Made by a program: the position numbers and the translations under genes. Below, one piece after another: positions 2,179-63,994 of a stretch of DNA of 64,000 bases; position 1 is the first letter of the stretch; the number at the start of each line of letters is the position of its first letter. The notes beneath the pieces are model-generated. The model was not told the DNA's origin and did no database searches. It was given only the letters and a program-made list of their open reading frames with translations. The DNA is taken from the IMG/VR virus record IMGVR_UViG_3300048672_001143, positions 11,884 through 75,883 of that record, one strand, 5' to 3'. This stretch comes from a virus (lineage: Duplodnaviria; Heunggongvirae; Uroviricota; Caudoviricetes).

Positions 2179-2646
2179 TCAAATAAATTGTTCTTCTTCC
2201 GGTATTTTTACCGGTTGCGCGATTTGTAATTTCGCTATCCGTTCTTTTGCTATCCGTTTAGGCAGTTCGCGAATTTTATTTCGTAAAGTGCTTTCGGCCT
2301 TAAACCGTACTACACAACTGTGTGGTATTAATATCTCTTTTTTATGTAAAGGGTTATACGCCATAAAATCCGTTTTAATATCCGGTGTTAGATTGCCGAC
2401 GCCTGGAATTATTACCTTTCTGCCGTACACTAATTCGCAATGAATTACCGCGCAAAAAGCATCGAAGAAAAATCGGCTTTCGTACGGAGTGTACCCAGTC
2501 ATATCGCCTATTATCTTAACCATTTCCATGGTGGTTAATGGCCGTTTCTCATCCGGTTTCCGGTACCGCTTTGGTATAACTTCTCCCTCGCCGAAGATTC
2601 TCTTTGGCCGGCCTCGCCCCCTTTTTACTGGCGTCTCCTCAAACAT
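2179..2646 (-). CDS. HU/IHF-family DNA-binding protein with N-terminal AT-hook-like RGRGRPKR
   Basis: C-terminal ~90 aa match the HU pattern: GRKVIIPGVGNL ... YNPLHKKEILIPHSCVVRFKAESTLRNKI (compare HU GDAVQLVGFGTF ... [29 protein letters not shown]). Confidence 0.5.
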   Translation of the reverse strand: MFEETPVKRGRGRPKRIFGEGEVIPKRYRKPDEKRPLTTMEMVKIIGDMTGYTPYESRFFFDAFCAVIHCELVYGRKVIIPGVGNLTPDIKTDFMAYNPLHKKEILIPHSCVVRFKAESTLRNKIRELPKRIAKERIAKLQIAQPVKIPEEEQFI

Positions 2647-2648
2647 AC

Positions 2649-2954
2649 CTAAATCCCCAAGGATTCTTCTTGGTGTATGATCTCTTCCGCGGCACGGCCT
2701 TCACCTACTGCCTCATCCAACCACTGTAGAAACATATCAGGTATCTTAGCTTTCCACTGCAGTGCCATTATGCCCTCCGGGCTATTGGGATCCGCCAATA
2801 CCAGCGCTTCTAAGGCTTCTATCCGGCATTGGTGCGCCCGGTCTATCAAGTACTGCCCAACCTTATCGTGCGCAATGAAGTGCTCTATGTCCAAGCCTAA
2901 AGAAACTGCCCGCATGGACGGGTCGTTTTGATACTTTCCTGCTAAATCAACCAT
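2649..2954 (-). CDS. hypothetical protein
   Basis: ORF-track frame packed tightly between the portal and HU-like genes. Confidence 0.3.
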   Translation of the reverse strand: MVDLAGKYQNDPSMRAVSLGLDIEHFIAHDKVGQYLIDRAHQCRIEALEALVLADPNSPEGIMALQWKAKIPDMFLQWLDEAVGEGRAAEEIIHQEESLGI

Positions 2955-2976
2955 TTAATCTCTCCAGTTTAAATTA

Positions 2977-5358
2977 TTAGTCGCCTAAAGTTGGTGTTTC
3001 TATTCCTGATTTTGCGCCTAATACCGGAGAAACGGGTTGCGGCGGTAAATTAGGGTGCGTTCCGGTATTTTGCACAACTGGAGCCGCCTGCGGGGTAACC
3101 GCTTGCATTACCGGAGCCGCATTACGGTCGATAAACCCGACGGATTTCAAAATTTCATCTGTAACTGGCGCCATTCCTGGGTTCTGTGCAGCCACTCCCG
3201 CTGCTTGCGCGGCTTCGTAGACGGCCGTAACGTTCGTCGTCGTGGTTTGGGCCTGAATGAGCGCTATTTTTGCGTCCATTTCCAGTAAAGATTTTTGGAT
3301 TTTTGCGTTTTCCATCTCTAATCGGGTATTTTCCAGCTGTAACTTACCTTGGGCAATTTCCATTTTGCCCTGTTCTATCTGCATTTTCATTTCCATTTGC
3401 TGCTGCGCCAACTGCTGAGCTGGGTCTGGTGGTGGGCTTTGCTCCATAGCATCGACTTTAGCAAAATCGAAGAACCGGGATCCATTATCGTAACCAGCAG
3501 CTCCGAATATCTCGTTAGCAATTTCTGCTCCTCGTATCGCTGCTCCTGCTTTAGGAACTAAACTGACTGTCGTCGCGACCGCGCTCTGTATTTTCTGCAT
3601 TCTTTGTGTCGGACTTACCGCGCCCATGCCGACGTTAACCGATACCGAGAATTTATAATTGAAATATTCTGGTAAGACTTTCAACAACTTAGCTTTCTTA
3701 GCCGCTACGGTTAGTGCCGTTGCATCCGTTTCATACATTGCCACGAGTTGTACTAGCTGTCTAAGAACCGGTTCGATCCAAGTTTCGGTAAAGGTTCTTA
3801 ACTCCATTTCCCGTACTTGGTTGCCCGCCTCGTTCATCAAATTCATGCCGGTTGCGGTTTCGTGCAACTTCCGGTTTGCATTAACAGTAGACCCGGCCGT
3901 TGACCCTGACAGGTCGTCCATAGCCAACGAGAGTCTGTCCATCTCCTGGTAGCTTGAAGCCGTTACGTCTTGTACTGGTAATGGCTCTACATGGCTGGAT
4001 AGAGCTCCGGGAGCACTAACACCTATTAACCCTCCTGGTACGTTTCGGCTCAAGGCCCTAACGTCGACTTGGTTCCCTTGGCGGTATAAATACCGGCGGT
4101 TTAATACTTGCCGAACGTTATCGTAACGTTGGTTATTTAATTCGTTGACCGCTTTCTGAAGTCCTGAAGTTAGCTCAACCGGGCTGCTTGGGAATGGCCG
4201 GTCCGTTTCGACTTCCATTTTCCCGAGTACATAGTCCCGTTGTCCTCCGGCCCAAGGTATTACCTGAGTAAGAGGTACCGGTTCTGACAATAAAACATTT
4301 ACACCGGCGGTATAGTAAAGCCAATCAATCCCGTCATATCGGACAATATTCCTGTGAATCCAGACTATGCGGAATTCGTCCACGACTTCCATCATGTTGG
4401 ATTTAGGATCCAGCCGGCGTGAACCTGACCGGGCACGACGTGTGGTATCTAAGTTATCCCGGTTACCCGCGGATAAAAGCTGTCCGGCTCCCAGTTCTTT
4501 CCAGGCGGGTTCCCCGTTTTTAGAATCCCTGCCCTTACGTAATTTTATCTCTGTTAAAACATCCCCTAAGAACATCGGCATCAGTTCTATCAGGTAGGGG
4601 GAAGAATTTGCTGGGTCCAGCCAGTCGGCTGCAGGGGATATTCGGATATTTTCTATCGGTACTACTCGGACCGTTGGTTCGTCTTTTATAATCCGCGTTT
4701 CATAAAGTTCTGTAACCGCACCGGTCTCAGGATCCACTTCTCTGCCGACTAAAATCTCGGCTTCCTTAAAGTTCCACGATTGATGTGACGCAATGGTGCC
4801 AAGTACTGCGGTCTCACCGATTCCGCCTAGGACCAATTGGTACCAAGGAATCGTGTGTGTTAACCGGTAATTTAATAAGTTTTTGATCAGGTCTGCTGCA
4901 TCTCGCTGCTCCGAGTTATCCGAGTCTTCGGCTTCAATAGCGACAACGTCGGAGCTGGTAAAGTAAGCAGAAGCCGCTGCGGCCTGGATTGCCCGTACCA
5001 AAGTACGTGTTTTTGGCCAAAAATAATTTGCCCGGTGCTTATTGGCGTCCGCCAAAATAGGTGAATCCGGCGCATGCTCTGACCGGTAATGCGCAAAGTT
5101 TCTAGCCCAGATAGCCCTTTGATTAACTTGCAACCACGATTCGCTTGACTCGTAAGCGTTTCTTGCCATTCGCACCCAATCCGTTGCTTCTCCAAAAGTT
5201 GATGAGTCACCCTGACTTATCTTCGGCCTTCCAGCCGCATAATTGGGGTTATTCCCTAGCCCATCAACTGAATTGACTTGTGGGGCGGATACCGCAGAGG
5301 AGGGTCTGTAATCTCCCCCTGCTAACGAAGGCTGTGGATCAAATGGCGCAAGCAGCAT
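2977..5358 (-). CDS. putative portal protein (793 aa; C-terminal Q/A/E-rich coiled-coil like barrel-forming portals)
   Basis: Size, position downstream of terminase and upstream of scaffold/capsid; C-terminal MEMKMQIEQGKMEIAQGKLQLENTRLEMENAKIQ coiled coil. Confidence 0.55.
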   Translation of the reverse strand: MLLAPFDPQPSLAGGDYRPSSAVSAPQVNSVDGLGNNPNYAAGRPKISQGDSSTFGEATDWVRMARNAYESSESWLQVNQRAIWARNFAHYRSEHAPDSPILADANKHRANYFWPKTRTLVRAIQAAAASAYFTSSDVVAIEAEDSDNSEQRDAADLIKNLLNYRLTHTIPWYQLVLGGIGETAVLGTIASHQSWNFKEAEILVGREVDPETGAVTELYETRIIKDEPTVRVVPIENIRISPAADWLDPANSSPYLIELMPMFLGDVLTEIKLRKGRDSKNGEPAWKELGAGQLLSAGNRDNLDTTRRARSGSRRLDPKSNMMEVVDEFRIVWIHRNIVRYDGIDWLYYTAGVNVLLSEPVPLTQVIPWAGGQRDYVLGKMEVETDRPFPSSPVELTSGLQKAVNELNNQRYDNVRQVLNRRYLYRQGNQVDVRALSRNVPGGLIGVSAPGALSSHVEPLPVQDVTASSYQEMDRLSLAMDDLSGSTAGSTVNANRKLHETATGMNLMNEAGNQVREMELRTFTETWIEPVLRQLVQLVAMYETDATALTVAAKKAKLLKVLPEYFNYKFSVSVNVGMGAVSPTQRMQKIQSAVATTVSLVPKAGAAIRGAEIANEIFGAAGYDNGSRFFDFAKVDAMEQSPPPDPAQQLAQQQMEMKMQIEQGKMEIAQGKLQLENTRLEMENAKIQKSLLEMDAKIALIQAQTTTTNVTAVYEAAQAAGVAAQNPGMAPVTDEILKSVGFIDRNAAPVMQAVTPQAAPVVQNTGTHPNLPPQPVSPVLGAKSGIETPTLGD

Positions 5359-9934: not shown

Positions 9935-10008
9935 TGGAGCGGGTACGGGGAATCGAACCCCGTCCCTCAGTTTGGAAGACTGGCGCTCTACCTTAGAGCT
10001 GTACCCGC
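9935..10008 (-). tRNA. tRNA-Gly (anticodon UCC), CCA encoded
   Basis: Manual cloverleaf: acceptor GCGGGTA/TACCCGC, D-arm GCTC-TAAGGTA-GAGC, anticodon loop CTTCCAA, T-arm CGGGG-TTCGATT-CCCCG, 3' CCA. Confidence 0.8.
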
Positions 10009-10016
10009 GAGGTGTT

Positions 10017-10093
10017 TGGTCGGAATAGCAGGATTCGAACCTACGGCCTCACCCTCCCAAGGGGCGCGCTCTACCAAACTGAGCTACATTCCG
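10017..10093 (-). tRNA. tRNA-Pro (anticodon UGG), CCA encoded
   Basis: Manual cloverleaf: acceptor CGGAATG/TATTCCG, D-arm GCTC-AGTTTGGTA-GAGC, anticodon arm CGCCC-CTTGGGA-GGGTG, T-arm GTAGG-TTCGAAT-CCTGC, discriminator A plus CCA. Confidence 0.8.
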
Positions 10094-11349: not shown

Positions 11350-12165
11350 AGGTTGAAATTATCCGTTGTCTGGTAGCGTAGTCTATTGCGCTTGGCCGCT
11401 TTTTGTCCGTCCATGTCCTACGTAATCACGTTGTTTTTGTAATTTCCCCCTACGCGTATTTTTTGCGGGTACGGTTTGACCGTGTAACCCGTAAAAAATA
11501 CGCGTTGTACCGTCCGTATTTTTTACGGGTTGCTCTTCGATTGAGTTGCACTTTCGCAAGTGTCCAGGGGTAGCCGTCTTTTTGTCCTGTCGTTGTCCTG
11601 TGGTGGTGGACACAAAAAACAGCGCTAAGTTTTTGTTTTAACTCTCTTATTTTTTCTGTCCTGTCCTGTCCTGTCAAAAATAAAGATATAATAATAACAC
11701 AAAAGTATAGTAAGTATTACGTCTCTGTATAAGGATTATAAAGAAGGTATTATAAAAAAGAGTAAAGAAAATAAAAACGACTTGAGGGGGGTACCCAGGA
11801 CAGCACCCAAAAAACGCCTTTTTTCCCTTATAAATCAATAGCTTACGAGCCGTCCACCACCCAAGGACAGGAGGACAGGACAAAAAAAAGTTGTTATAAA
11901 TCAAGCACTTAAATTACCACCCCATAGCCTTCAGCGTGGCCACCCCAGGACAGAAAGGGGCTAATTTTTGCGAGTTAACTGCAAAAAAGCGAAAAACCAC
12001 AAAATAATTGCAAATAACCCGCAAAAAATACGAGTTTAGATAAAAAAGCACTTGACACACGCGCAAATTGCGCGGATAATGGAACCCGTAGACAGAGAAA
12101 CACCCAAACCGATTTTTTAACCTGCCAATTTAGGCAATTTTAACTTTTTAAAGGATACCGCAATC
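11350..12165. promoter_or_regulatory. divergent control region / candidate replication origin: inverted repeats, GTCCTGTCC/GGACAGGAC iterons, AT-rich block
   Basis: Near-perfect inverted repeat CGCGTATTTTTTGCGGG...CCCGTAAAAAATACGCG at ~11455-11515. Multiple GTCCTGTCC copies in both orientations at ~11575-11960. >80% AT block at ~11680-11790. Separates the minus-strand late unit from the plus-strand early genes. Confidence 0.55.
12052..12080 (+). promoter_or_regulatory. sigma70-type promoter TTGACA-17-GATAAT with perfect palindrome CGCGCAAATTGCGCG in the spacer
   Basis: Read directly; 85 nt upstream of the first plus-strand gene. Confidence 0.6.
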
Positions 12166-49460: not shown

Positions 49461-49538
49461 GCCACTTTAGCTTAGTCGGTTAAAGCAGGCCGCTCATAAC
49501 GGCAAGTGTGCTGGGTTCGAATCCCCCAAGTGGCACCA
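49461..49538 (+). tRNA. tRNA-Met/Ile2-like (anticodon CAU), CCA encoded; imperfect T-stem
   Basis: Acceptor GCCACTT/AAGTGGC perfect; D-arm GCTT-AGTCGGTTA-AAGC; anticodon arm GGCCG-CTCATAA-CGGCA; T-arm CTGGG-TTCGAAT-CCCCC has only 3 clean pairs. Confidence 0.55.
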
Positions 49539-54482: not shown

Positions 54483-54698
54483 ATGCCCAACTCAAACAAC
54501 GACGCTTTTTTCGAAGAGCTACGCGAAAGAAACCGGTTTAAAAACGATACCTACTCAAACGAAGACCTGCAAAAGTTAATCGATGGTATGTATGAGCGCT
54601 ACGCTTCTCTTGGGGCTAACCAAGACAAGCACGCGTTGTTTAGAAAGATTTTAGAATTAATCGATGTGCAGATAGCGAGAGCAAAATCCGCTACCTAA
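54483..54698 (+). CDS. hypothetical protein
   Basis: ORF track; same CTGGAGAAATAAAA-ATG leader; stop overlaps the convergent giant ORF's stop. Confidence 0.35.
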   Translation: MPNSNNDAFFEELRERNRFKNDTYSNEDLQKLIDGMYERYASLGANQDKHALFRKILELIDVQIARAKSAT

Positions 54699-57600
54699 TC
54701 CCCATTTTCTTCCCGCAATCTGTTTTGTTCATAGAGGTACGCCAGTCTTGGATTTACGGCGTACCCTCTAATTCCTCTGGCCTGCTCGTTCTTAGCTGTT
54801 CTTACTGCCGATTTATGAATGCTTTCGTAAGTAATTGGCCACGATGGGTGATCTTTCTGCCACTTGCTCAACTCTTCCTGTGGAATCGGTTCGCCTTTTG
54901 TTACCGCTTTCTGGATCTTATTTACCAGTTTAGCGCGAGCATCGGATATCGCAGCTTCTGCGGCTTTATTATACCCGCGTTCAGCGTACAGCACTTCCAT
55001 ATTGGAACTACCCAACCCGATAGCCTGGAACAGTACTTCCATTGCAGAAGCGTCTTTCAATTGCTCCCCGTTCATACTTTCGTACCCAGACTGAGCTAAG
55101 CGGATAGCTTTCATTCCGTCGCCAATCGCTTTGGGCGTAGCGCTTTCTACCCCACGCCATATTTCCCCATCGCCTAGCATTTTTGCGCCATCAGCGATCT
55201 TCTTAACCATGCCACCGAATGGTCCTGCGACTTGTGAGAGATACTCAGTCGCAGCATCTTTCCCTTCCAGGTCTTTCAAAGGCTCTTGGAAGAAGATATT
55301 GCTCAAATTCATACGGGAGGCTAAGTTGACCGGGGTCAACGCATTGCCCAACCCTTTAATAACCGCCGTAGCGAAGGTTTCACCCCCGAGGGAAGTCAAT
55401 CCTACACGAACTTCCTTTTCTACGTCCCACGGCTCATCATCGTCGGATACGGCGTTGCCAAGAGCGTTTAGCACCATGGTTATCGCGCCCATCAAAGGCA
55501 TTCCAAATAAACCGGCAGCCGCACCCTGCATAACAAACAGCGCTGATAGCGATCTAGCTGCTTCTTTCGCTTCTGCTTTTCTGGCGTCGGCCAAAGCTAT
55601 TTCTTCCGGGGTATTTCTCGGCATTTTTTTCCAATACCCAAGCGTATCGACTGCGGTACGACCCCACAAATAAAGCATGGCCTGTGGATATTTTTTATAC
55701 TGCATAACCACGCCAGCTACAGGCCCGCGGAATATGCGAGCCGCGTTTTCAGTCGAGTAATCGCCGTGCGCATCATTGTTTAGCTTACGGGCATACTCCA
55801 AGGCTTCGTAGTGATTTTCTGGATCCCCGTTCAACGCTAAATCATAAGCCGCCAAGAGGGTAATTTCTCGGTTCATCCGCTCACCGTGGTGAAACATCCA
55901 ACCCATCTTTTTGTTGAATTCTTGCAGGCGACCGCCGTAATCTTCCCCTTCACGGCCGATGCCCAAAACATCGAAGAAGTTGGTCCTGGAAACATCACCC
56001 TCTTCTTTAAAATCGCGTAAAGCAGCTAAGCGCCTGGAGATGCGGAGCATTTCTCTAGGATCGCCGTTGTGCGCCCGGAGATAAGCTAATTTTTCTTCCA
56101 TTACCACTGAGATAGATACGTTCCCGTCTTCATCCCGGTAAATGTAATTTCCATTGGCGTCTTTCTTGTTGAAGTTGATAACCGCTTTAAGGAATTCATT
56201 TCTGGTATTTCCAAAAGCTTTTCGGGTTGCATTAACCCCGTATTTACCTACCGCAATGGGCATAGCCACAACGGGTGTTTGAAATAAGTTGACTAAACCA
56301 CTTGATAAACCGAAACCCATAGTCATAACGAAGTCGAATTGGCGAATAGCCGCAGCCACCTGATCCATGCCTGTACTAGAAGTGTTCACCATCGCATTGT
56401 AGGTCTTATTCAACTCTTCGATGGTGTATGCGGCTTTGTGGCTGTTCTCAGTGTTTATGTGGCTAGCAGCTTCTAAAGCTTCCTTATTGCGTACCGCTAC
56501 TCTTTCCAAAGATTCTTCCGGGGAACCTACGGATACCGTATTTTCCCACAACGTTTGCACTTTTCTAAAGCGTTTTACCTGCTCTGGAATTCCAGTAGCT
56601 ATAATATCTGCTATGGCTGCTTCCACTCGCTGTGGGTCTTGGTATTGAGCCCAAAAGCTGGCTATTTTTTCAGCGGTTTTAAGCGCGTCGGAAGCTTCTG
56701 CGCGTTCCCGTGCAGTAGTCGCTTCCGATAGGTTTTTCTGCGCTATGAATAAAGCTTTTGGAACTTTGTTAGCGATATCTAGATGGCTGAATTTATTGCG
56801 TAGCTTAATCGCTTCATCGTACAGATTCTGTTCTTCCGCCGGCGCGTTATCCCTGAGCTCCTCTAAGGCACCTTCTTGTTTCAACTCGTCCCAATTCGCC
56901 CCCAACATTTCAGCCGCTTGCATTTCAGTACGCTTTGCTTCACGAGCAGAAGTTTTAGTCGCTATGTCCAGTGCCAGCTTAGCATCTCGGAGAGATTCGC
57001 CCATGTTACGACCTTCCACCATATTGGCTAATTGGGAAGCTCCGTGGTGGATAGTGTTGGCAAAAGCCCGCATAGCATCTTCATCGAAGCCTTTTGTGCC
57101 TTTGCGGTGCATAGCGTTGTGCCGGACCGAAATATCTGGCAACGTTGCCAAATACATTTGGTGGATCTCATCTTGCAACTCTTTAGAAACCTCGATTGGG
57201 ATATCCGCCGCATCGATTTTCTCGTGAATATTTTTCAAGAAGTTGTCCGATACAGCATCCCCAATCTGCGCGTTTTGCATTTCGCTTAATGAAGTTCCCT
57301 GATCTCTTACCGTTCCACCTTCAGCTTCGAAGTTCTTTACCGCCCGTTTTCTAGCGGCTAAAGACTCATAAGTCATGAACCAGTTTTCGCCTTGGGCATC
57401 TTTTCCGTAAAACCAATGATCCCCGTAACGCTTCAACGGTGCGTAGTACCAGGATAGTGACTGGGATTCAAATTTTATCCGGAGTTGCGCGATCAATCCT
57501 GCCGCAGTTTGAGCATCGATCATCGACTCTTCGATCCGGTGTTCGAGTGCTTCCAGGCGGGCGTTGAATATCTCCTGGTGGAGTTCGTATGTGCCTGAAT

Positions 57601-60600
57601 AAATTTTAGCGGCTTCTGGATTGGTAGATACTAAGGTATCGTAAGCCGGTTTCAAGTTAGCATAAGACTGCCGGCGTAAAATGTTAGAATCTTTCCAGCC
57701 GTTTTTAGCGCGTTTTTCAGTTTGTTTTTGGTCAATCTCGTGCAGTTTGGTCAAGAACTGCTGGGCCTCTTCTTGCGTAGCGAAAGTCGCTGAATTCTTA
57801 TCTGATAAGATAGCACCGGCCTGATCAGCGGCTTCTGACAGCGCAGTTCGGCTTTCCCCGTTGAATTCTGTCATCGAGTACGCTTTAAATTGCCCGCGCA
57901 GTGTTCTCTCTACACCAAGCCAATCTTTGGAGACGTTAATGTCCCGAAGCGTCGACTGTTGCATTATACGACCAGTTTCTTTACGAGCTGGAATCGGTAA
58001 ACCCTTCCACTTGATCGTGGTAATCTGATTCGCTTTATGTAAGTACGGGTCCACCATCGCACGGCGACGCTGCATACCTTCTTCGTAAGTTTTTAGCCCC
58101 GGCAGATAGGATTTAGCGGACTCGATAATCTGGCGAACGGACAAGAACGCTAATTTTTCTTTAGAAAGCGTTTCGAGGAGATTGTCTTTTTTATCCTGTA
58201 ACTCACTTGCGGCTACTCTTAACCCTTCCGGCAGATATTCGGCTACTGCTTCACGCGTGCTGCGGGACGGCCTGCTGAACATCGGCATGCCTTCTGAAAG
58301 AATTTTCTCTTTCATTTCTGGCGTGATGATCAAAGCGGGTTGGTCCTTCAATCGCCCGCCGGCTTTCATTCGTTTTTGGTCTTCTGGGGTTAGGGATTTC
58401 CCTTGCAATGAATCTCGGTAAGGAATACCAATAACAACAGGAACCGATTCAATTTTCCCGCCCCTTTTACGCGCGATTTCCATAGCCGCTTGGGTAATCA
58501 GCGCTGGTTTTCCCTGCGCATTTAAACCGTTTCCGTCGCCGTACATGGCTTGCGTCCAAGCCCCGCCTATTTTAAGATCAAGGCCCGATAATTCTCTAGC
58601 TACGGGAGAAACTTCATCTTCCGGCTCAAAACCTACAGACCCCTGTGATTTAGTGCCTTCCATTCCGATTATCTTGCCCGCTAGGTCTTTCCCAACGTAC
58701 TCTTCAAGTTGCTCCGGGGACTGATCAAATCGGGTATCTACACTATCACCACCCATATCGAAAATGTTTATATCGAATTTTCCGTTGCGCTTTACGTACC
58801 TAATCTTACTAACTTGAGCGCTAAGATCATACCGATCTGCTTGTTGATCACCCGTTGTCCAGGCCACAGAATTGCTATCGCTGTCTATCGCTTGGCTGAT
58901 CGCTTTTTTCATCAGTAAAGAAATATAAGCGTTTGTTGCTTTAGTATTGGAATCGGTAACGAATGGCGCCGCTGGTATTCCTAGTTCTGGCATCCTTTCT
59001 AATTTTCGTATTTCATCTAGAATATCTTGCCTTTTAGACTGAAGACTGACGAATTCTTCGTCAAATTCCTCATCCATACCCGCCTTTAAAGCTAATTCAT
59101 GCATTCGCCCACGTAACTTCACATTTTGATCTTTTAATTCCAGAAGATGCCGTTCTTCGGCATCCGTTAAGGGCCTGTTAAATCCCAGTTTTCTGCCCGC
59201 TTGACTACGTTGGCTTTGTACTTCTTCCAAGAATAAAACTTTATTGCCGTTCGCGTCGATTCGGGTATTGTGTCGAATCCAGCCAATTTGCTTACCTTCT
59301 CCTGTATCACCAAAATGCGTGTGATCGTTCCGGTTGTAAGGCTCCGTAGTTGGTATGGTAACTACAAGTTCGCGGTAATCTACTCCGCCGGGAAGTGTTA
59401 ACTGTGCGTTATCGTGTTTAGGTTGTTGCTTCCGCTGCTGTTCTAAAATATTAACTGTATCCGATAAGTTCTGGTATCTGTCTTTTTCGCTTCTAGATAA
59501 ATCATCAAACTTTATTCTGCCGTATTTAGAATGCTGCTCTGCTCTAAAGTGGTTCATTTCTTCTAACGTAGAACGCAATTTATTTTCGAGCTGCGTATCG
59601 GTACCTAACACCTTATCCTCAACTTTCACGCCGTTAGCGTCCAGAAAATCGCTAACCTGTGCCCGAGACACTTTTCCGGAAAGAGAATCCAACCAATCCG
59701 TAATCCCTGACCAATAAATTTCGTCTTTCTTAACGTCAAATTTAGGCGCGTTGGCCACTAACCAGACTTTCACTTGCTGCGCGTTGCCAAAAACTTTCTC
59801 CGGTGCTTTTTCAACCGCTTTGCTTAGAGCCGAATAAAATCTTGGCGCAGGTTCAGAAGGTCGGCTAAACATTGGCGCTTCAATATCTGATTCGCTAAAC
59901 GGACTCGATTGCACATTCCTTCCGGTCCGTAATTGCGCCTCTGTTTCTGTGCGTTTTCCAGACCATACTGGAACCCCACCCCAGCGATTAGTGTTCGGCG
60001 CTGGGATGATAGAAACGACAGAGTAAACCTGCCCGCCGTTCTGCCTATCCGCTTGCTTACTGACAACCAAAGCCTGCTGCAGCCTAGAAGACCGAAATAT
60101 TAAATGTCCTTTGTCTCGGAATATCTGATCAAAGCCTTTGGCAATCGAACTGACGTGCCGGGCGTAATTTTCAGCGACTTCACTGGTATATCCCGGCACT
60201 GTTCTGCGATCTTTTTCACGAATCGCGTTATCGTGGATGTGCGTAATACCAAAACCTCTATGCTCGGCTGTGGCCACGCCTACCCGTAATTTGATCGGTA
60301 GTTGCTCTACCCCTTTAGAAACCGCTTCACGAGGCGTCATCGCAATAACGCCGTTCATATTACCTTCAAACTGCGGAGTTTCTGGCACAATGAAATCTTC
60401 TACCGATTTCCGAATCCCGTGTAACCGGCGAGATTGTTGCGCTTCTGAATTAAATACCCTTAGCGAAGTAGAATCTCGGTTAGCCGCGGAAGCTAGACTA
60501 GCGCGAAGTAAATCGTGGATATCTTTTTCGCCCATTTTACCGGTGATAAACCCCCGGCCAATACCGTGGGTTACCAAAAAGGATTTGATTTGAGAAATAA

Positions 60601-63600
60601 GGCGTTTAAACCAGCCAGCGTTGGGCGCGTACTCTCCCATCTTGGCGATAACTTCGGCAACGAAAGGTTCCCCGCCGACTTCTAAATGGTCGTAACTTTG
60701 CGCGACTTCGTTCCATATACGTTGCGCGTAGGACCCATCAATCTTGGCCAGATTAGTGATCTGTTTTTGCAGTGAGGAATACCCGTCAGTTCCGAGTATT
60801 CTGCGGAGGTTATAATGCTCCCCAATTTCGTGGAGTACGACTGCTGCCAATCGGTGCGCCGGAGTAGCCGCTAAGTCGATGTGCGCTTTACCCTTAAAAT
60901 AGATAGCCTCATCGTCCGATTGTAAGCTTTCCCCACCCGGCCAATCTTCTTTGCCCTGCGTAAAATTCAAAGTACCGTTGGCAACCAAGGTGTTTATGCC
61001 CGGTCCAAATTTATTTACGAGGTGCGCAATAGCCTCTTCCTGAGTAGCGAATCTCGATTTAAGGTACTCATGGACTTCAGGCTGCTGTAATAACGCTTCG
61101 GTTATCCCTGCTGGTTTTGCCTCAGTAGCCCCTTCGCTAGGAGTTGCTGCACCAGCTCGGCCTCTTTTTCCGCCTGTTGGGCTTTTAACTCTTTTAGCCT
61201 TTTTCGATGGTCCCCCATTATCCGTGCTGGGTGATCCGCTAGATGCGATATCCCCAGTCGTTCCAGTCTGGTTTCGTCTGACATACTCTTCTCCACGTTT
61301 ACCCGCATCTAATTCACGGCTAGATAATTCAAAAATCGATGATAAATCCGTTCCCGGAATAATCGGGCTTTGCCCAAGATAAAGGCCAACCCCATTAGGT
61401 TTTTCAGCCCCAGGCTTAGATTTCGGATGTGGAATGTGGCTTAAGCTAACGGTATTTATGTATTTAGATACCCGCTGTTTAGCGTTTTCCATCGCTTGCT
61501 TAATGGTCGCGTCAGTTCCACCTGTAACAACGGCGCTTAGTTCATCCCCGCCGTGACGGATTAAAACAGCATGCCCTGCTTTACGCATAGAATCCGCAAA
61601 AATATCGCTTATGTTTCGAAATGTGACATTCGCCAAGTGTGCGTTATTTCCAAATTCGGTATTCAATCCGCCTAGGTTTGCGATATCCGCCTCTATGAAA
61701 TGCGCGGGCTCGCCAGTTTCTGCGACATGCTCCATCGCAGCCTTGACAGTTGGCTCCTTATCATGTGGCATGTGAAAACCGGTAACCGCATCCATACTCT
61801 CATCAGGAACTATCTTCTCAATGGTAGCCTCGTCCTTTAATCCGGCCTCTCTGGCCAACTGCCGGCGTTCGGCTATCCGTCGTTCGCTAGGCGATAGAAA
61901 ATCTACCCGCCGCCGATCTTGTGATACTCGTTGCCCTACACTAGCTAAAGCGGCTTCGATATCGCTTGGGTGTTGCGCTTTTACTTTCTGAACGATATCC
62001 TGATTTGCTCTTGGTTTTATGCCTAGACTCTTCGCCACGCGAAGGATCGCTTCATTCGGGAGCGTGTCTATTTTAGCATCGAGTACCGCGTGTTTATCTT
62101 CTAAGCTTACTTCTTGCCCTTTTTCTGGTGATTCTTCTTGCGGGGCTGTGTTCTGGCTTTGGTCATTTAGTTGCTCTGTGGGTTGTGAAATGGGTGCTTC
62201 GGATGTTGCCGGTTCTGTATTCCCGATCCCTTGTCCGCTCGGTTGAAATCCTCCGCCACTGACTGCGGTATCCCCACCTTCTTGGCGAATTTCGGATTGT
62301 GCGCTGCTGCCGCCATCAGGCGTGCTTGGGCTGGACTCTTGGATGGCATTTTGGCTCTCCTGCGACTGGGATCTGCGCTGTATCTCTTCTAAAATAATCT
62401 GTTTTTGGATAGGGGACGTGCCATTTAATACATAATTTTTCAATAGGCTTTTCTTATCCATTCCGCGTATAGCCGTTTGATAAGCCGCATTGTCCGCATC
62501 GATAACCGATTGTTTTACATTTTCTACAGCTTCTATTTGCGGCTGCGCCACTTGATTATCTAAGGCAACAGAAGCCGCGCGATTAAAAATACCATCCGGG
62601 GCCGTTGCCAAATGCTCCTTTAAAGGCTCCGTTACGGCGCTTACTGCTTCAGAAGTTCTTTCTTCCGGTGTTGGTATTTTGTTAGCCGCAATGTGTGCTT
62701 CCATTGCGTCAAGGACTGATTGTGCGGAATCTCCGCGATTGGCCTGGATCCCTAGCTTAGAAGCGGCGTCCGCCAAACGTTTAGTAACTTGCTGCGTTCG
62801 TCCTGCAGGCGTATACGCTTTCTTATAAGCGTCAACGAAATCTTGACTCTCCCGTAGGATAGTCTGATCATCCGTATTTTCAGGTTCTTCTGCTTGCTCG
62901 GCTTCTACTACTTGTTCAGATGGCGTATTTTCTACAGTACCCGCTGGCAAGTAATCCGCTAATAAACTATCTACCTCTGGGGTACTGGGCTCTCCCGCAG
63001 TATTTTCAGGCTCCGCCAGTAACCCTTGTTGTTGATCAATTACCGCTTGTTCTTCAGGAGAAATATTACTCGGCTGCTCCGTCGCGTGCGTTAGCGCACC
63101 CGTAGGAGCGCCCATACCAAAACCGGCTACTGCTCCTAAAGCTGCGGCATTTCCTACACCTTCACCGATATCTTTTCCTAAAGCTAAATTAGAAGCCGCC
63201 TGCTCTTGCCCGGATTGCGCTGTTTCTTGTCCAGCTTCCACCAAGCCACTTTCAAGCCCACGTCTTACCGCATTTTTAGCGGTTGGCTCAATAGCATTCT
63301 GCCCGCCTATAAGCGCAGTGTTAACATCCCCAACGCCTAATTTATTGGCTAATCTTCCCGCACCACCGGTAATCGCACCAGTTAATGCGCCGCTACCGGC
63401 TAAGACCGCTGTTTGCTCCGGAGTTAATAATCCGTTTTCAGTCTGTTGGCGAACCTGCTCGACGTTTTGACCCGCAGTTACACCACCTTCTCCAATGGCG
63501 CCTGCCGCCGAGGGAGATAATTTAGGAGCTACACTCATAGCACCTTTAGCGAGGCCCGCCCCTCCCAGCATAGAAGGCGCAGATTCTAGGATAGTGTGTG

Positions 63601-63994
63601 CAGCAACGGAGGGATTCTCTGCGACGGCTTTTAGAGTGGGTACAAAGCCTTCCGCTTCTTGTACATTTTGAAAAGCTTTTTTCTGCGCCGGAGAATATTC
63701 TTCGGATAAAATATCTTTGGCGCGTTTGAAATCGACGCCGTTTTCTTGAAGGGTTTTACCTATCCGGCCACCTGTTGGTATGTCGGCTAATCCGACTGCA
63801 GTTTCCGGAACCGCGATAATACCTTTTAAAGCGGTGATCCCCGCATCTTTCGCCCTATCGCTGAGGGTTGTTTCGGGTTCTGGCTCCGGAGTCTTCGGCA
63901 TGTAATCTGCCAGTAGTGAGTCTACGTCCGGAGTCTGAGATTTAGGCAGGTAATCTGCCAGCAATGAATCTACGCCTGGTGCGGTAGCCGCCAT
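54695..63994 (-). CDS. giant multidomain (polyvalent) protein of at least 3099 aa with GGDEF-like palm domain and HExxH zincin motif; N-terminus may lie beyond the window
   Basis: Single uninterrupted frame. RHGGDEL preceded by EADIANLGGLNTEFGN (aa ~766-820). VVLHEIGEHYNL (aa ~1052-1063). N-terminal VDSLLADYLP x3; PMFSRPS x2. Antisense track ORFs inside it are artefacts. Confidence 0.7.
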   Translation of the reverse strand: MAATAPGVDSLLADYLPKSQTPDVDSLLADYMPKTPEPEPETTLSDRAKDAGITALKGIIAVPETAVGLADIPTGGRIGKTLQENGVDFKRAKDILSEEYSPAQKKAFQNVQEAEGFVPTLKAVAENPSVAAHTILESAPSMLGGAGLAKGAMSVAPKLSPSAAGAIGEGGVTAGQNVEQVRQQTENGLLTPEQTAVLAGSGALTGAITGGAGRLANKLGVGDVNTALIGGQNAIEPTAKNAVRRGLESGLVEAGQETAQSGQEQAASNLALGKDIGEGVGNAAALGAVAGFGMGAPTGALTHATEQPSNISPEEQAVIDQQQGLLAEPENTAGEPSTPEVDSLLADYLPAGTVENTPSEQVVEAEQAEEPENTDDQTILRESQDFVDAYKKAYTPAGRTQQVTKRLADAASKLGIQANRGDSAQSVLDAMEAHIAANKIPTPEERTSEAVSAVTEPLKEHLATAPDGIFNRAASVALDNQVAQPQIEAVENVKQSVIDADNAAYQTAIRGMDKKSLLKNYVLNGTSPIQKQIILEEIQRRSQSQESQNAIQESSPSTPDGGSSAQSEIRQEGGDTAVSGGGFQPSGQGIGNTEPATSEAPISQPTEQLNDQSQNTAPQEESPEKGQEVSLEDKHAVLDAKIDTLPNEAILRVAKSLGIKPRANQDIVQKVKAQHPSDIEAALASVGQRVSQDRRRVDFLSPSERRIAERRQLAREAGLKDEATIEKIVPDESMDAVTGFHMPHDKEPTVKAAMEHVAETGEPAHFIEADIANLGGLNTEFGNNAHLANVTFRNISDIFADSMRKAGHAVLIRHGGDELSAVVTGGTDATIKQAMENAKQRVSKYINTVSLSHIPHPKSKPGAEKPNGVGLYLGQSPIIPGTDLSSIFELSSRELDAGKRGEEYVRRNQTGTTGDIASSGSPSTDNGGPSKKAKRVKSPTGGKRGRAGAATPSEGATEAKPAGITEALLQQPEVHEYLKSRFATQEEAIAHLVNKFGPGINTLVANGTLNFTQGKEDWPGGESLQSDDEAIYFKGKAHIDLAATPAHRLAAVVLHEIGEHYNLRRILGTDGYSSLQKQITNLAKIDGSYAQRIWNEVAQSYDHLEVGGEPFVAEVIAKMGEYAPNAGWFKRLISQIKSFLVTHGIGRGFITGKMGEKDIHDLLRASLASAANRDSTSLRVFNSEAQQSRRLHGIRKSVEDFIVPETPQFEGNMNGVIAMTPREAVSKGVEQLPIKLRVGVATAEHRGFGITHIHDNAIREKDRRTVPGYTSEVAENYARHVSSIAKGFDQIFRDKGHLIFRSSRLQQALVVSKQADRQNGGQVYSVVSIIPAPNTNRWGGVPVWSGKRTETEAQLRTGRNVQSSPFSESDIEAPMFSRPSEPAPRFYSALSKAVEKAPEKVFGNAQQVKVWLVANAPKFDVKKDEIYWSGITDWLDSLSGKVSRAQVSDFLDANGVKVEDKVLGTDTQLENKLRSTLEEMNHFRAEQHSKYGRIKFDDLSRSEKDRYQNLSDTVNILEQQRKQQPKHDNAQLTLPGGVDYRELVVTIPTTEPYNRNDHTHFGDTGEGKQIGWIRHNTRIDANGNKVLFLEEVQSQRSQAGRKLGFNRPLTDAEERHLLELKDQNVKLRGRMHELALKAGMDEEFDEEFVSLQSKRQDILDEIRKLERMPELGIPAAPFVTDSNTKATNAYISLLMKKAISQAIDSDSNSVAWTTGDQQADRYDLSAQVSKIRYVKRNGKFDINIFDMGGDSVDTRFDQSPEQLEEYVGKDLAGKIIGMEGTKSQGSVGFEPEDEVSPVARELSGLDLKIGGAWTQAMYGDGNGLNAQGKPALITQAAMEIARKRGGKIESVPVVIGIPYRDSLQGKSLTPEDQKRMKAGGRLKDQPALIITPEMKEKILSEGMPMFSRPSRSTREAVAEYLPEGLRVAASELQDKKDNLLETLSKEKLAFLSVRQIIESAKSYLPGLKTYEEGMQRRRAMVDPYLHKANQITTIKWKGLPIPARKETGRIMQQSTLRDINVSKDWLGVERTLRGQFKAYSMTEFNGESRTALSEAADQAGAILSDKNSATFATQEEAQQFLTKLHEIDQKQTEKRAKNGWKDSNILRRQSYANLKPAYDTLVSTNPEAAKIYSGTYELHQEIFNARLEALEHRIEESMIDAQTAAGLIAQLRIKFESQSLSWYYAPLKRYGDHWFYGKDAQGENWFMTYESLAARKRAVKNFEAEGGTVRDQGTSLSEMQNAQIGDAVSDNFLKNIHEKIDAADIPIEVSKELQDEIHQMYLATLPDISVRHNAMHRKGTKGFDEDAMRAFANTIHHGASQLANMVEGRNMGESLRDAKLALDIATKTSAREAKRTEMQAAEMLGANWDELKQEGALEELRDNAPAEEQNLYDEAIKLRNKFSHLDIANKVPKALFIAQKNLSEATTARERAEASDALKTAEKIASFWAQYQDPQRVEAAIADIIATGIPEQVKRFRKVQTLWENTVSVGSPEESLERVAVRNKEALEAASHINTENSHKAAYTIEELNKTYNAMVNTSSTGMDQVAAAIRQFDFVMTMGFGLSSGLVNLFQTPVVAMPIAVGKYGVNATRKAFGNTRNEFLKAVINFNKKDANGNYIYRDEDGNVSISVVMEEKLAYLRAHNGDPREMLRISRRLAALRDFKEEGDVSRTNFFDVLGIGREGEDYGGRLQEFNKKMGWMFHHGERMNREITLLAAYDLALNGDPENHYEALEYARKLNNDAHGDYSTENAARIFRGPVAGVVMQYKKYPQAMLYLWGRTAVDTLGYWKKMPRNTPEEIALADARKAEAKEAARSLSALFVMQGAAAGLFGMPLMGAITMVLNALGNAVSDDDEPWDVEKEVRVGLTSLGGETFATAVIKGLGNALTPVNLASRMNLSNIFFQEPLKDLEGKDAATEYLSQVAGPFGGMVKKIADGAKMLGDGEIWRGVESATPKAIGDGMKAIRLAQSGYESMNGEQLKDASAMEVLFQAIGLGSSNMEVLYAERGYNKAAEAAISDARAKLVNKIQKAVTKGEPIPQEELSKWQKDHPSWPITYESIHKSAVRTAKNEQARGIRGYAVNPRLAYLYEQNRLREENGD

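Follow-up and report, generated by a model that had tools for sequence, protein, structure and literature searches.

What kind of protein does a tailed phage make from a single 9.3-kb gene? The question is raised by a giant open reading frame (ORF) on the minus strand of a 64,000-nucleotide stretch of IMG/VR record IMGVR_UViG_3300048672_001143 (positions 11,884 to 75,883 of the record), which we refer to as the window. An initial annotation, made from the sequence alone, described the product as a mosaic that could be a 'large polyvalent protein', of the sort injected to counter host defences, or a virion RNA polymerase of the phage N4 type, and did not choose between the two. Here we report that profile matches place this giant protein among the PLxRFG ('tail-700') polyvalent giants, and we argue that it is probably packaged in the virion and injected into the host as an effector.

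Profile matches place the giant protein in the PLxRFG family

NCBIfam model NF032893 ('tail-700' PLxRFG) matched the giant protein at 422.2 bits against a cut-off of 100 (E = 3.9e-126), with residues 2510-3084 aligned to positions 163-679 of the 681-position profile and a second stretch matching in addition. The Pfam domain LPD39, which is specific to polyvalent proteins, was found at residues 1930-2164, scoring 29.5 bits when the whole protein was searched and 36.8 bits for the segment (cut-off 27). The C-terminus also matched PHROG families 30335, 11358 and 10089 (E = 1e-47 to 1e-96), whose member proteins are 2,400-4,650 amino acids (aa) long; family 10089 bears the label 'DarB-like antirestriction'. 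The motif that names the family is present as PLKRYG at residues 2186-2191, with Tyr in place of Phe, and an alignment of 33 sequences shows no variation at its Y, P, L, R and G. A tblastn search of 50,697 phage genomes returned, over the last third of the protein and at 25-27% identity, the giants of PEp14, Pavtok, Stean, Parlo, SopranoGao, LASTA, SJM3, ZX1, PBC5, POI1126, Atu_ph08, Skulduggery, Itty13, Vibrio phage douglas and Microcystis phages. At the DNA level, megablast gave no match for the ORF in phage and plasmid collections.

The C-terminal matches fall in three modules, designated G, G2 and H (residues 1915-3099, ~1,180 aa; Table 1). The three always occur together, and module H ends at most 13 residues from the C-terminus in 46 of 46 cases. 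Module H contains hydrophobic helices at residues 2565-2583, 2824-2842 and 2874-2892 as well as an HHGERxNRE motif. An AlphaFold2 (AF2) model covering the C-terminal 1,200 aa is almost entirely alpha, in keeping with the long alpha-helical stretches noted in the initial annotation. The LPD39 and NF032893 scores above their cut-offs and the PHROG families of giants, taken with the shuffled modules and the virion-associated relative JC1 gp69 described below, bear out the proposal of a large polyvalent protein.

The ORF is complete

The frame is continuous, as first described: it runs on the minus strand from the ATG at 63992-63994 to a TAG at 54695-54697 (54695-63994 overall) and comprises 3,099 sense codons. 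Only two sense codons (cag tac) separate the ATG from the window edge, and the protein had been given as at least 3,099 aa. A metagenomic orthologue of 3,004 aa, P0078, bears on both points. Its residue 1 aligns with residue 1 of the giant protein, and the two are collinear to the last residue at 64-74% identity. On its 95.6-kb contig the P0078 gene has the identical AGTAC-ATG-GCG context, with an AAGGA ribosome-binding site ahead, 46 nt from the preceding gene, and a second copy of P0078 is found in a 93.5-kb IMG/VR contig, where its neighbours are the same. Because P0078 aligns one-to-one and its ATG lies behind a ribosome-binding site, we regard the start codon as secure and the length as most likely exactly 3,099 aa. 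The collinearity of P0078, the ribosome-binding-site context and the second orthologue copy further indicate that the ORF is complete and is not a fusion created by gene calling or assembly.

Two fixed ends enclose an exchangeable middle

Residues 701-1900 were searched with HMMER against 1.84 billion representatives, which yielded 7,633 proteins at E <= 1e-3. Four sub-segments of this region match independently, and in varied orders, in thousands of proteins of 2,000-7,800 aa. A word-index protein search with residues 700-1390, and with the GGDEF domain alone, returned nothing, and the index returned only proteins shorter than 2,000 aa; we attribute these blanks to a limit of the tool rather than to novelty, since the exhaustive search found the 7,633 relatives. 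Local iterative searches over 225 fetched homologues defined ten modules (Table 1). Among these homologues, modules C, D, E and F change order, occur in duplicate or give way to others. Identity to P0078 is 74-81% for modules A, C, E, G and H and 31-58% for the linkers. A second relative, P0080, matches at 53% identity from module D through to the C-terminus and has a pyrophosphatase and another GGDEF subtype in place of module B2 and the GGDEF domain, and the giant of Pseudoalteromonas phage Y7 shares the N-terminal module and carries ddrB-ParB, an Eco57I methylase, ResIII/Helicase_C and ART. Neither tandem DNA repeats nor internal protein duplications were found in the giant ORF. The architecture is one of two family-defining ends, with exchangeable modules on low-complexity linkers between them. 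PADLOC matches to Cas3 HD (E = 0.013) and CARF (E = 0.017) were set aside as sub-threshold noise.

The N-terminal end is module A, which hydropathy analysis shows to contain hydrophobic, glycine-zipper-like segments at residues 51-70, 195-213 and 283-302, and which most homologues that possess it carry at the N-terminus or close to it. The initial annotation had read the Gly/Ala-rich sequence as low-complexity linkers. Low-complexity stretches of Gly, Ala, Ser, Pro and Gln are indeed present in the protein, but most of residues ~100-300 belong to this conserved N-terminal module, which is 81% identical in P0078; by tblastn, residues ~105-276 are 45% identical to the N-termini of the F116-group and Y7 giants. 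Module A may act as an ejection or membrane anchor. A short motif, DSLLADY (full form D-S-L-L-A-D-Y-(L/M)-P), occurs three times, at residues 9, 25 and 342. The versions in P0078 are DSMLADY, DTILADY and DTMLADY, the copies are absent from relatives more distant than P0078, and the motif is possibly a docking peptide.

Module C is a GGDEF domain with conserved catalytic residues

The GGDEF-like domain of the initial annotation is real. Pfam GGDEF (PF00990) scored 26.6 and 30.4 bits against a cut-off of 23.8, and a profile built from 14 GGDEF modules and searched against the PDB matched solely diguanylate cyclases, 34 in number, with DosC as the best (E = 1.6e-8). With the stricter TIGR00254 model, module C scored 20.5, below the cut-off of 37.4. 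The module contains DxVTGF at residues 735-740, metal-binding Asp770, Asn773, Asn778, GGDEL at 815-819 (61538-61552) and Lys899. The 14-row family alignment shows no variation at Asp770, Asn773, Asn778, the GGDE of 815-818 or Lys899, and the catalytic residues are conserved in nearly all of the 36 GGDEF modules viewed. In P0078 the module is 77% identical, well above the linkers and within the 74-81% range of modules A, E, G and H, so that the GGDEF domain appears to be as strongly constrained as the scaffold. No RxxD inhibitory site lies at the equivalent position (by PleD numbering) upstream of GGDEL, where the sequence is RKAGHAVLIRH. An RxxD site is not obligatory for the GGDEF family. Judged by these residues, the domain looks active and unregulated.

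Relatives add a second line of evidence. In P0080 (residues 868-1230) and in locus L009 (2388-6714), a polyvalent-type inorganic pyrophosphatase (PF18823) lies directly upstream of a GGDEF-type module, and in L009 the pyrophosphatase is fused to a head-associated DarA_N domain. This adjacency argues for real catalysis, in which pyrophosphate is released, and suggests that a pyrophosphatase-cyclase pair is recurrent among the relatives. A search upstream of the window's own GGDEF module found no inorganic pyrophosphatase. Separately, P0150 (locus L007, 5321-6712) is a stand-alone protein of 463 aa that consists of two tandem copies of this GGDEF-like module, located among apparently bacterial genes (HxlR, AraC-type, PIN). 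Because P0150 stands alone, this family of phage GGDEF modules also occurs outside the giants.

The remaining modules include a putative metallopeptidase

A zincin motif of the form HExxH had been reported for the giant protein, but a regular-expression search found no HExxH in its entire 3,099 aa. The motif present is HEIGEH, an HExxxH, at residues 1055-1060 in module D (H1055-E-I-G-E-H1060; 60815-60832), with E1114 as the candidate third ligand. Among 97 module D homologues, which share LHE.G.H and a downstream E, H1055 and E1056 are conserved in at least 90%, H1060 in at least 70% and E1114 in at least 90%, and the H and E are invariant in our alignment of the module. The module D profile had no significant match in the PDB, and its members gave weak Pfam matches to DUF6647 (E = 0.0021), DUF6782 'putative metallopeptidase' (E = 0.014) and MPTase-PolyVal (E = 0.042). 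We designate module D a putative zincin-like metallopeptidase. A clade of HEXXXH zincin peptidases has been described in polyvalent proteins, where it was proposed to cut the polyprotein into units (PMC5512222).

The basic linker that precedes module D, with its KKAKRVKSPTGGKRGRAG stretch, is present as initially described. Module B1 has five homologues among the 225 proteins and no Pfam match. Module E, for which neither the PDB nor Pfam gave a match, has six invariant residues (His1245, His1252, Arg1264, Glu1275, Arg1279 and Asp1316). Module F is the most widespread of all, with 243 copies in 179 of the 225 homologues, often together with ART-PolyVal. Its AF2 model is confident (predicted local distance difference test 86, predicted template modelling score 0.80) and suggests a GNAT-like fold with a coiled-coil insert; by sequence, module F has no Pfam or PDB match. 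Profile-against-PDB searches with modules D, E and F also returned CarD (E = 0.05) and CENP-S (E = 0.24), which we rejected as chance. Two copies of PMFSRPS flank module F. The related PLFSR is the conserved C-terminal end of module F in 56 of 95 copies and occurs at ~3.5 times its chance frequency across the family, and PMFSRPS itself is absent from the close orthologue P0078. The pair could be recombination scars at module junctions or protease sites.

The giant protein is probably a packaged and injected effector

The giant protein contains no Cys in 3,099 aa, where ~34 would be expected from the other 23 ORFs of the window (1.09% Cys; P ~ 1.6e-15), and the 225 homologues (534,000 residues) contain 0.04% Cys. 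The absence of Cys from the giant fits passage through a tail channel, and proteins that pass this channel or the periplasm may in general be marked by such an absence. Hydrophobic, glycine-zipper-like segments are nearly confined to modules A and H, and between the folded modules, which measure 160-530 aa, lie low-complexity linkers. A homologous giant ends the structural module in the orthologous loci L004 and L006, in F116 and in JC1. In the Bcep22-like phage JC1, the giant gp69 (4,515 aa) was represented by 51 unique peptides in CsCl-purified virions (PMC9144972). For the 3,500-aa N4 gp50, a beads-on-a-string model of ejection has been put forward, in which the protein threads a ~35 Å channel and refolds in the cell (PMC13434306). 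By analogy with these relatives and with N4 gp50, we consider it likely that the giant protein is a virion-packaged, host-injected 'polyvalent' effector of the PLxRFG family, and that it would take an injection route like that of N4 gp50. Giants of this family are loosely labelled 'DarB-like' in podophages of the Bcep22, F116, PEp14 and PBC5 types.

Four other explanations were weighed. An N4-type virion RNA polymerase, which would transcribe early genes from the injected genome and was one of the two classes initially proposed, would account for the size, the podophage context and the beads-on-a-string layout, and the relative phiC725A is annotated as a 'putative internal virion polymerase'. 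The giant protein, though, matches no RNA polymerase in Pfam, PHROGs, NCBIfam or PDB sequences (the N4 mini-vRNAP entries included), and tblastn gave no match to any schitovirus. All segments of at least 160 aa fall in other module families, which leaves none that fits an RNA polymerase core of ~1,100 aa. When the polymerase motifs were sought by regular expression, the T/DxxGR and RxxxK...Y matches were isolated and scattered and motif C (HD) was absent, and we regard this class as scarcely credible here. Hardly better is antirestriction of the DarB type, in which the packaged and injected protein would shield the entering DNA from type I restriction by methylating or remodelling it. The C-terminus does match the 'DarB-like antirestriction' family PHROG 10089, and many of the tblastn relatives are so annotated, yet the shared region is the PLxRFG scaffold and not the methylase-helicase dyad of DarB. 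Searches with Pfam, NCBIfam, PHROG and regular expressions found no methyltransferase, SF2 helicase, Walker A or DEAD/H motif in the giant protein, whereas the identical scan found Eco57I, ResIII and Helicase_C in the Y7 giant, which served as a positive control.

The giant protein could also be a late-expressed cytoplasmic multi-enzyme that is never packaged and that serves, for example, surface physiology dependent on cyclic di-GMP (c-di-GMP), or superinfection exclusion, in the producing cell. The stand-alone tandem GGDEF protein P0150, in its apparently bacterial context, is compatible with this, and packaging is known only from relatives; but homologous giants were found in purified virions, relatives fuse the same modules to the head-associated DarA_N, and the extreme avoidance of Cys and the fixed terminal modules are hard to explain for a protein that stays in the cytoplasm. 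We judge this quite unlikely. Somewhat less so, though still improbable, is a structural ejection or internal-core protein like T7 gp16 or the N-terminal domain of N4 gp50, whose enzymatic modules are degenerate or passengers. The non-enzymatic termini are the most conserved and positionally fixed parts, the hydrophobic helices occur only in the termini, there is no Cys, and the gene lies at the end of a podophage structural operon, all of which such a protein would share. Against degenerate modules, the GGDEF catalytic residues are invariant in the sampled copies and the domain is conserved like the termini, the HE..xH and E of module D are conserved in 97 copies, and the adjacent pyrophosphatase of relatives implies catalysis. 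It is possible that the protein would also help to build a trans-envelope conduit, which is not exclusive with an injected effector.

Several points weigh against the reading of the giant protein as an injected effector. For packaging and injection we reason from relatives that are only ~25% identical to the giant protein over its C-terminal third, and the part of the operon upstream of the giant gene falls outside the window. The packaging and ejection roles of both termini are putative: no solved structural relative of the ~1,180-aa C-terminal scaffold was found, and LPD39 has been suggested to be enzymatic (PMC5512222). The zincin assignment of module D comes from the motif and from weak hidden Markov model matches (E = 0.002-0.04). 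In module F, sequence inspection of the GNAT-like core revealed no obvious Q/RxxGxG/A motif for binding coenzyme A (CoA), and the invariant residues E1591, Q1593, S1594, Q1598, G1600 and G1604 do not form the canonical Q/RxxGxG/A CoA motif. GGDEF enzymes act as dimers, and the giant protein has a single copy of the domain; many relatives have tandem copies, which fit a dimeric mechanism. The guanine-reading Asp of PleD is D344. By alignment, Asn789 occupies its place in module C, so the cyclase may make a product other than c-di-GMP.

We propose the following mechanism for a packaged and injected giant protein. The gene would be expressed last in the structural operon, and a few copies of the protein would be loaded into the capsid by way of the conserved termini. 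At infection, the Cys-free chain would thread the portal and tail channel as beads on a string, ahead of or with the DNA, and its hydrophobic termini would engage the envelope. The modules would then refold in the cytoplasm, where the zincin module may cut them apart. The GGDEF domain, if it is the cyclase that its conserved residues suggest, would make c-di-GMP or a related cyclic nucleotide before phage gene expression, with no feedback-inhibition site to restrain it, and the remaining modules would modify host proteins. The protein may also counter host defences, as the initial annotation had supposed for such proteins.

We further speculate, with considerable reservation, that the giant protein represents a pre-loaded cyclic-nucleotide 'first strike' and, in parallel, a new generic vehicle for protein ejection by podophages; the pair of ideas strikes us as rather doubtful. 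In the first strike, an injected cyclase insensitive to feedback would make c-di-GMP within seconds of DNA entry, before phage transcription. With Asn789 where an Asp would read guanine, the cyclase could alternatively make a cyclic di- or oligonucleotide of a non-canonical kind. Its aim would be to rewire the surface or motility physiology of the host, or to jam or decoy cyclic-nucleotide-based immunity. As a vehicle, the N-terminal module and the ~1,180-aa LPD39-PLxRFG scaffold, for neither of which is there a solved structural relative, would carry arbitrary podophage effectors.

Genomic setting

The gene had been placed at the end of a minus-strand late unit. This is not visible in the window, where the downstream genes are convergent plus-strand ORFs, but it can be seen in L004 and L006: there, same-strand genes upstream of the giant match PHROG families of virion structural proteins, in a layout as in the window. 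The comparison supports the giant gene as the last of a late or structural unit. Other phage genes of the window encode an SU10-type portal, large terminase (TerL), primase, DUF2800 exonuclease, family A DNA polymerase (PolA) and SNF2 helicase. The portal (2977-5358, minus strand, 793 aa) is also without Cys. TerL is ~45% identical to those of Pseudomonas phage Itty13, Burkholderia phages Bcep22, DC1 and CSP3 and many Ralstonia podophages, all of which carry a giant 'DarB-like' gene that ends the virion module. The lineage of the window's phage has genomes of ~93-96 kb and is known only from metagenomes.

Three convergent ORFs adjoin the giant gene (Table 1). The nearest, of 71 aa, is not conserved in the orthologous locus, where its counterpart is an unrelated 47-aa hydrophobic peptide. 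No intrinsic terminator was found between the giant ORF and the convergent genes, and the stop codons overlap. The 616- and 584-aa ORFs have essentially no family match, apart from one weak match to a PHROG of unknown function, and are syntenic with the 650- and 607-aa ORFs that adjoin the orthologous giant in L004 and L006. The window also carries three tRNA genes; Gly and Pro, the amino acids of two of them, are abundant in the linkers and N-terminal module of the giant protein.

Table 1. Modules and motifs of the giant protein, and neighbouring features, in window coordinates. Identity refers to P0078.
Feature	Residues	Coordinates	Strand	Remarks
Module A, conserved Gly/Ala-rich N-terminal module	1-330	63005-63994	-	81% identical
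DSLLADY copy 1	9-15	63950-63970	-	
DSLLADY copy 2	25-31	63902-63922	-	
DSLLADY copy 3	342-348	62951-62971	-	
Module B1, helical, unassigned	385-545	62360-62842	-	47% identical
Module B2, unassigned, poorly conserved	630-725	61820-62107	-	alignment 59% gapped
Module C, predicted GGDEF-family nucleotide cyclase	726-905	61280-61819	-	77% identical
Basic low-complexity linker	906-964	61103-61279	-	41% identical
Module D, HExxxH zincin-like putative metallopeptidase	965-1200	60395-61102	-	
Module E (160 aa)	1205-1365	59900-60382	-	79% identical
PMFSRPS copy 1	1374-1380	59855-59875	-	flanks module F
Module F, widespread polyvalent-protein module of ~530 aa	1378-1908	58271-59863	-	
PMFSRPS copy 2	1904-1910	58265-58285	-	flanks module F
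Module G, LPD39	1915-2200	57395-58252	-	ends in PLKRYG (57422-57439)
Module G2, helical middle of C-terminal scaffold	2201-2499	56498-57394	-	
Module H, main tail-700 PLxRFG body	2500-3099	54698-56497	-	81% identical
Convergent ORF, 71 aa		54483-54698	+	TAA (54696-54698) overlaps the TAG of the giant ORF (54695-54697)
Convergent ORF, 616 aa		52589-54439	+	10 Cys
Convergent ORF, 584 aa		50548-52302	+	10 Cys
tRNA-Met(CAU)		49461-49538	+	
tRNA-Pro(UGG)		10017-10093	-	
tRNA-Gly(UCC)		9935-10008	-	

Significance

The polyvalent class, the PLxRFG domain, GGDEF domains in polyvalent proteins and the HEXXXH variant are already described (PMC5512222; NCBIfam). Our analysis adds that conservation resides in a scaffold with two ends, between which the cargo is freely exchanged, that the cargo here lacks the domains behind the 'DarB-like' label, that modules E and F have no curated family, and that Cys is avoided across the whole family. 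Because the scaffold is conserved while the cargo swaps entirely, the label 'DarB-like antirestriction', which was carried over from the cargo of a few members, is misleading. Giant PLxRFG proteins make up 10-20% of the genome in many podophages, and in JC1 the giant accounts for 22% (PMC9144972). The predicted cargo of the giant protein consists of a synthase of nucleotide second messengers, a peptidase that may process the protein itself, and two modules of uncharacterised kind. Should the cyclase reach the host in active form, the phage would manipulate host signalling before its own genes are expressed. The near-absence of Cys across the family offers a simple and testable signature of translocated phage proteins, and the scaffold could be a practical carrier for protein delivery into bacteria.

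Comparison with known systems

The closest known counterparts are the giants of Bcep22 (gp75), JC1 (gp69), PEp14, Parlo (3,764 aa), Atu_ph08 (gp21, 4,877 aa) and F116 (p59/p60), which share the C-terminal PLxRFG/tail-700 scaffold and are likewise giant and modular; the F116 group and Y7 also share N-terminal module A. As here, the Bcep22-like gene closes the virion module, and the podophages that carry it have a related TerL; in F116 the giant ends the structural block and is followed by a lysis cassette. The Bcep22-like giants carry an adenine methylase and an SF2 helicase, often with a transglycosylase, peptidase, ParB or ART, whereas the giant of the window has none of these and carries instead the GGDEF, HExxxH, E and F modules; identity is 25-27% and limited to the last third. 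The F116 giant (L010, 11590-22951) is annotated as two coding sequences, p59 'methyltransferase' (2,129 aa) and p60 (1,649 aa), which may reflect a real split, a frameshift or an annotation artefact.

The polyvalent class, including members with GGDEF domains, was described by Iyer, Burroughs, Anand, de Souza and Aravind in 2017, and among their examples is an Acetonema longum prophage giant with GGDEF, SNF2, methylase, zincin and ART domains (PMC5512222). The giant protein shares with that class the joining of unrelated effector domains in one polypeptide of the phage late region, as well as LPD39, GGDEF and HEXXXH. Its combination and order of domains, the PLxRFG scaffold as a unit and modules E and F were not described there. 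P1 DarB, the historical source of the 'DarB-like' annotation, is packaged in the head and acts on entry. DarB, however, is a methylase-helicase of 2,255 aa, with neither domain present in the giant protein, and P1 is a myovirus in which loading depends on DarA.

Like the bacterial cyclases PleD, WspR, DosC and DgcZ, module C has a DxLTG-like start, a metal-binding Asp, Asn, GG(D/E)E(F/L) and a C-terminal Lys. It differs from them in lacking RxxD, in having Asn for the guanine-reading Asp and an extra IPHPK insert, and in sitting inside a phage giant, where it has no sensory domain as a partner. Finally, N4 gp50 resembles the giant protein in being a podophage protein of ~3,100-3,500 aa with flexibly linked subdomains and a hydrophobic N-terminal region. 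No sequence similarity between the two was detected, and the predicted cargo of the giant protein is effector enzymes rather than a transcriptase. Even so, with its N-terminus implicated in injection and its C-terminus in encapsidation, N4 gp50 is the best mechanistic analogue for how the giant protein would leave the capsid.

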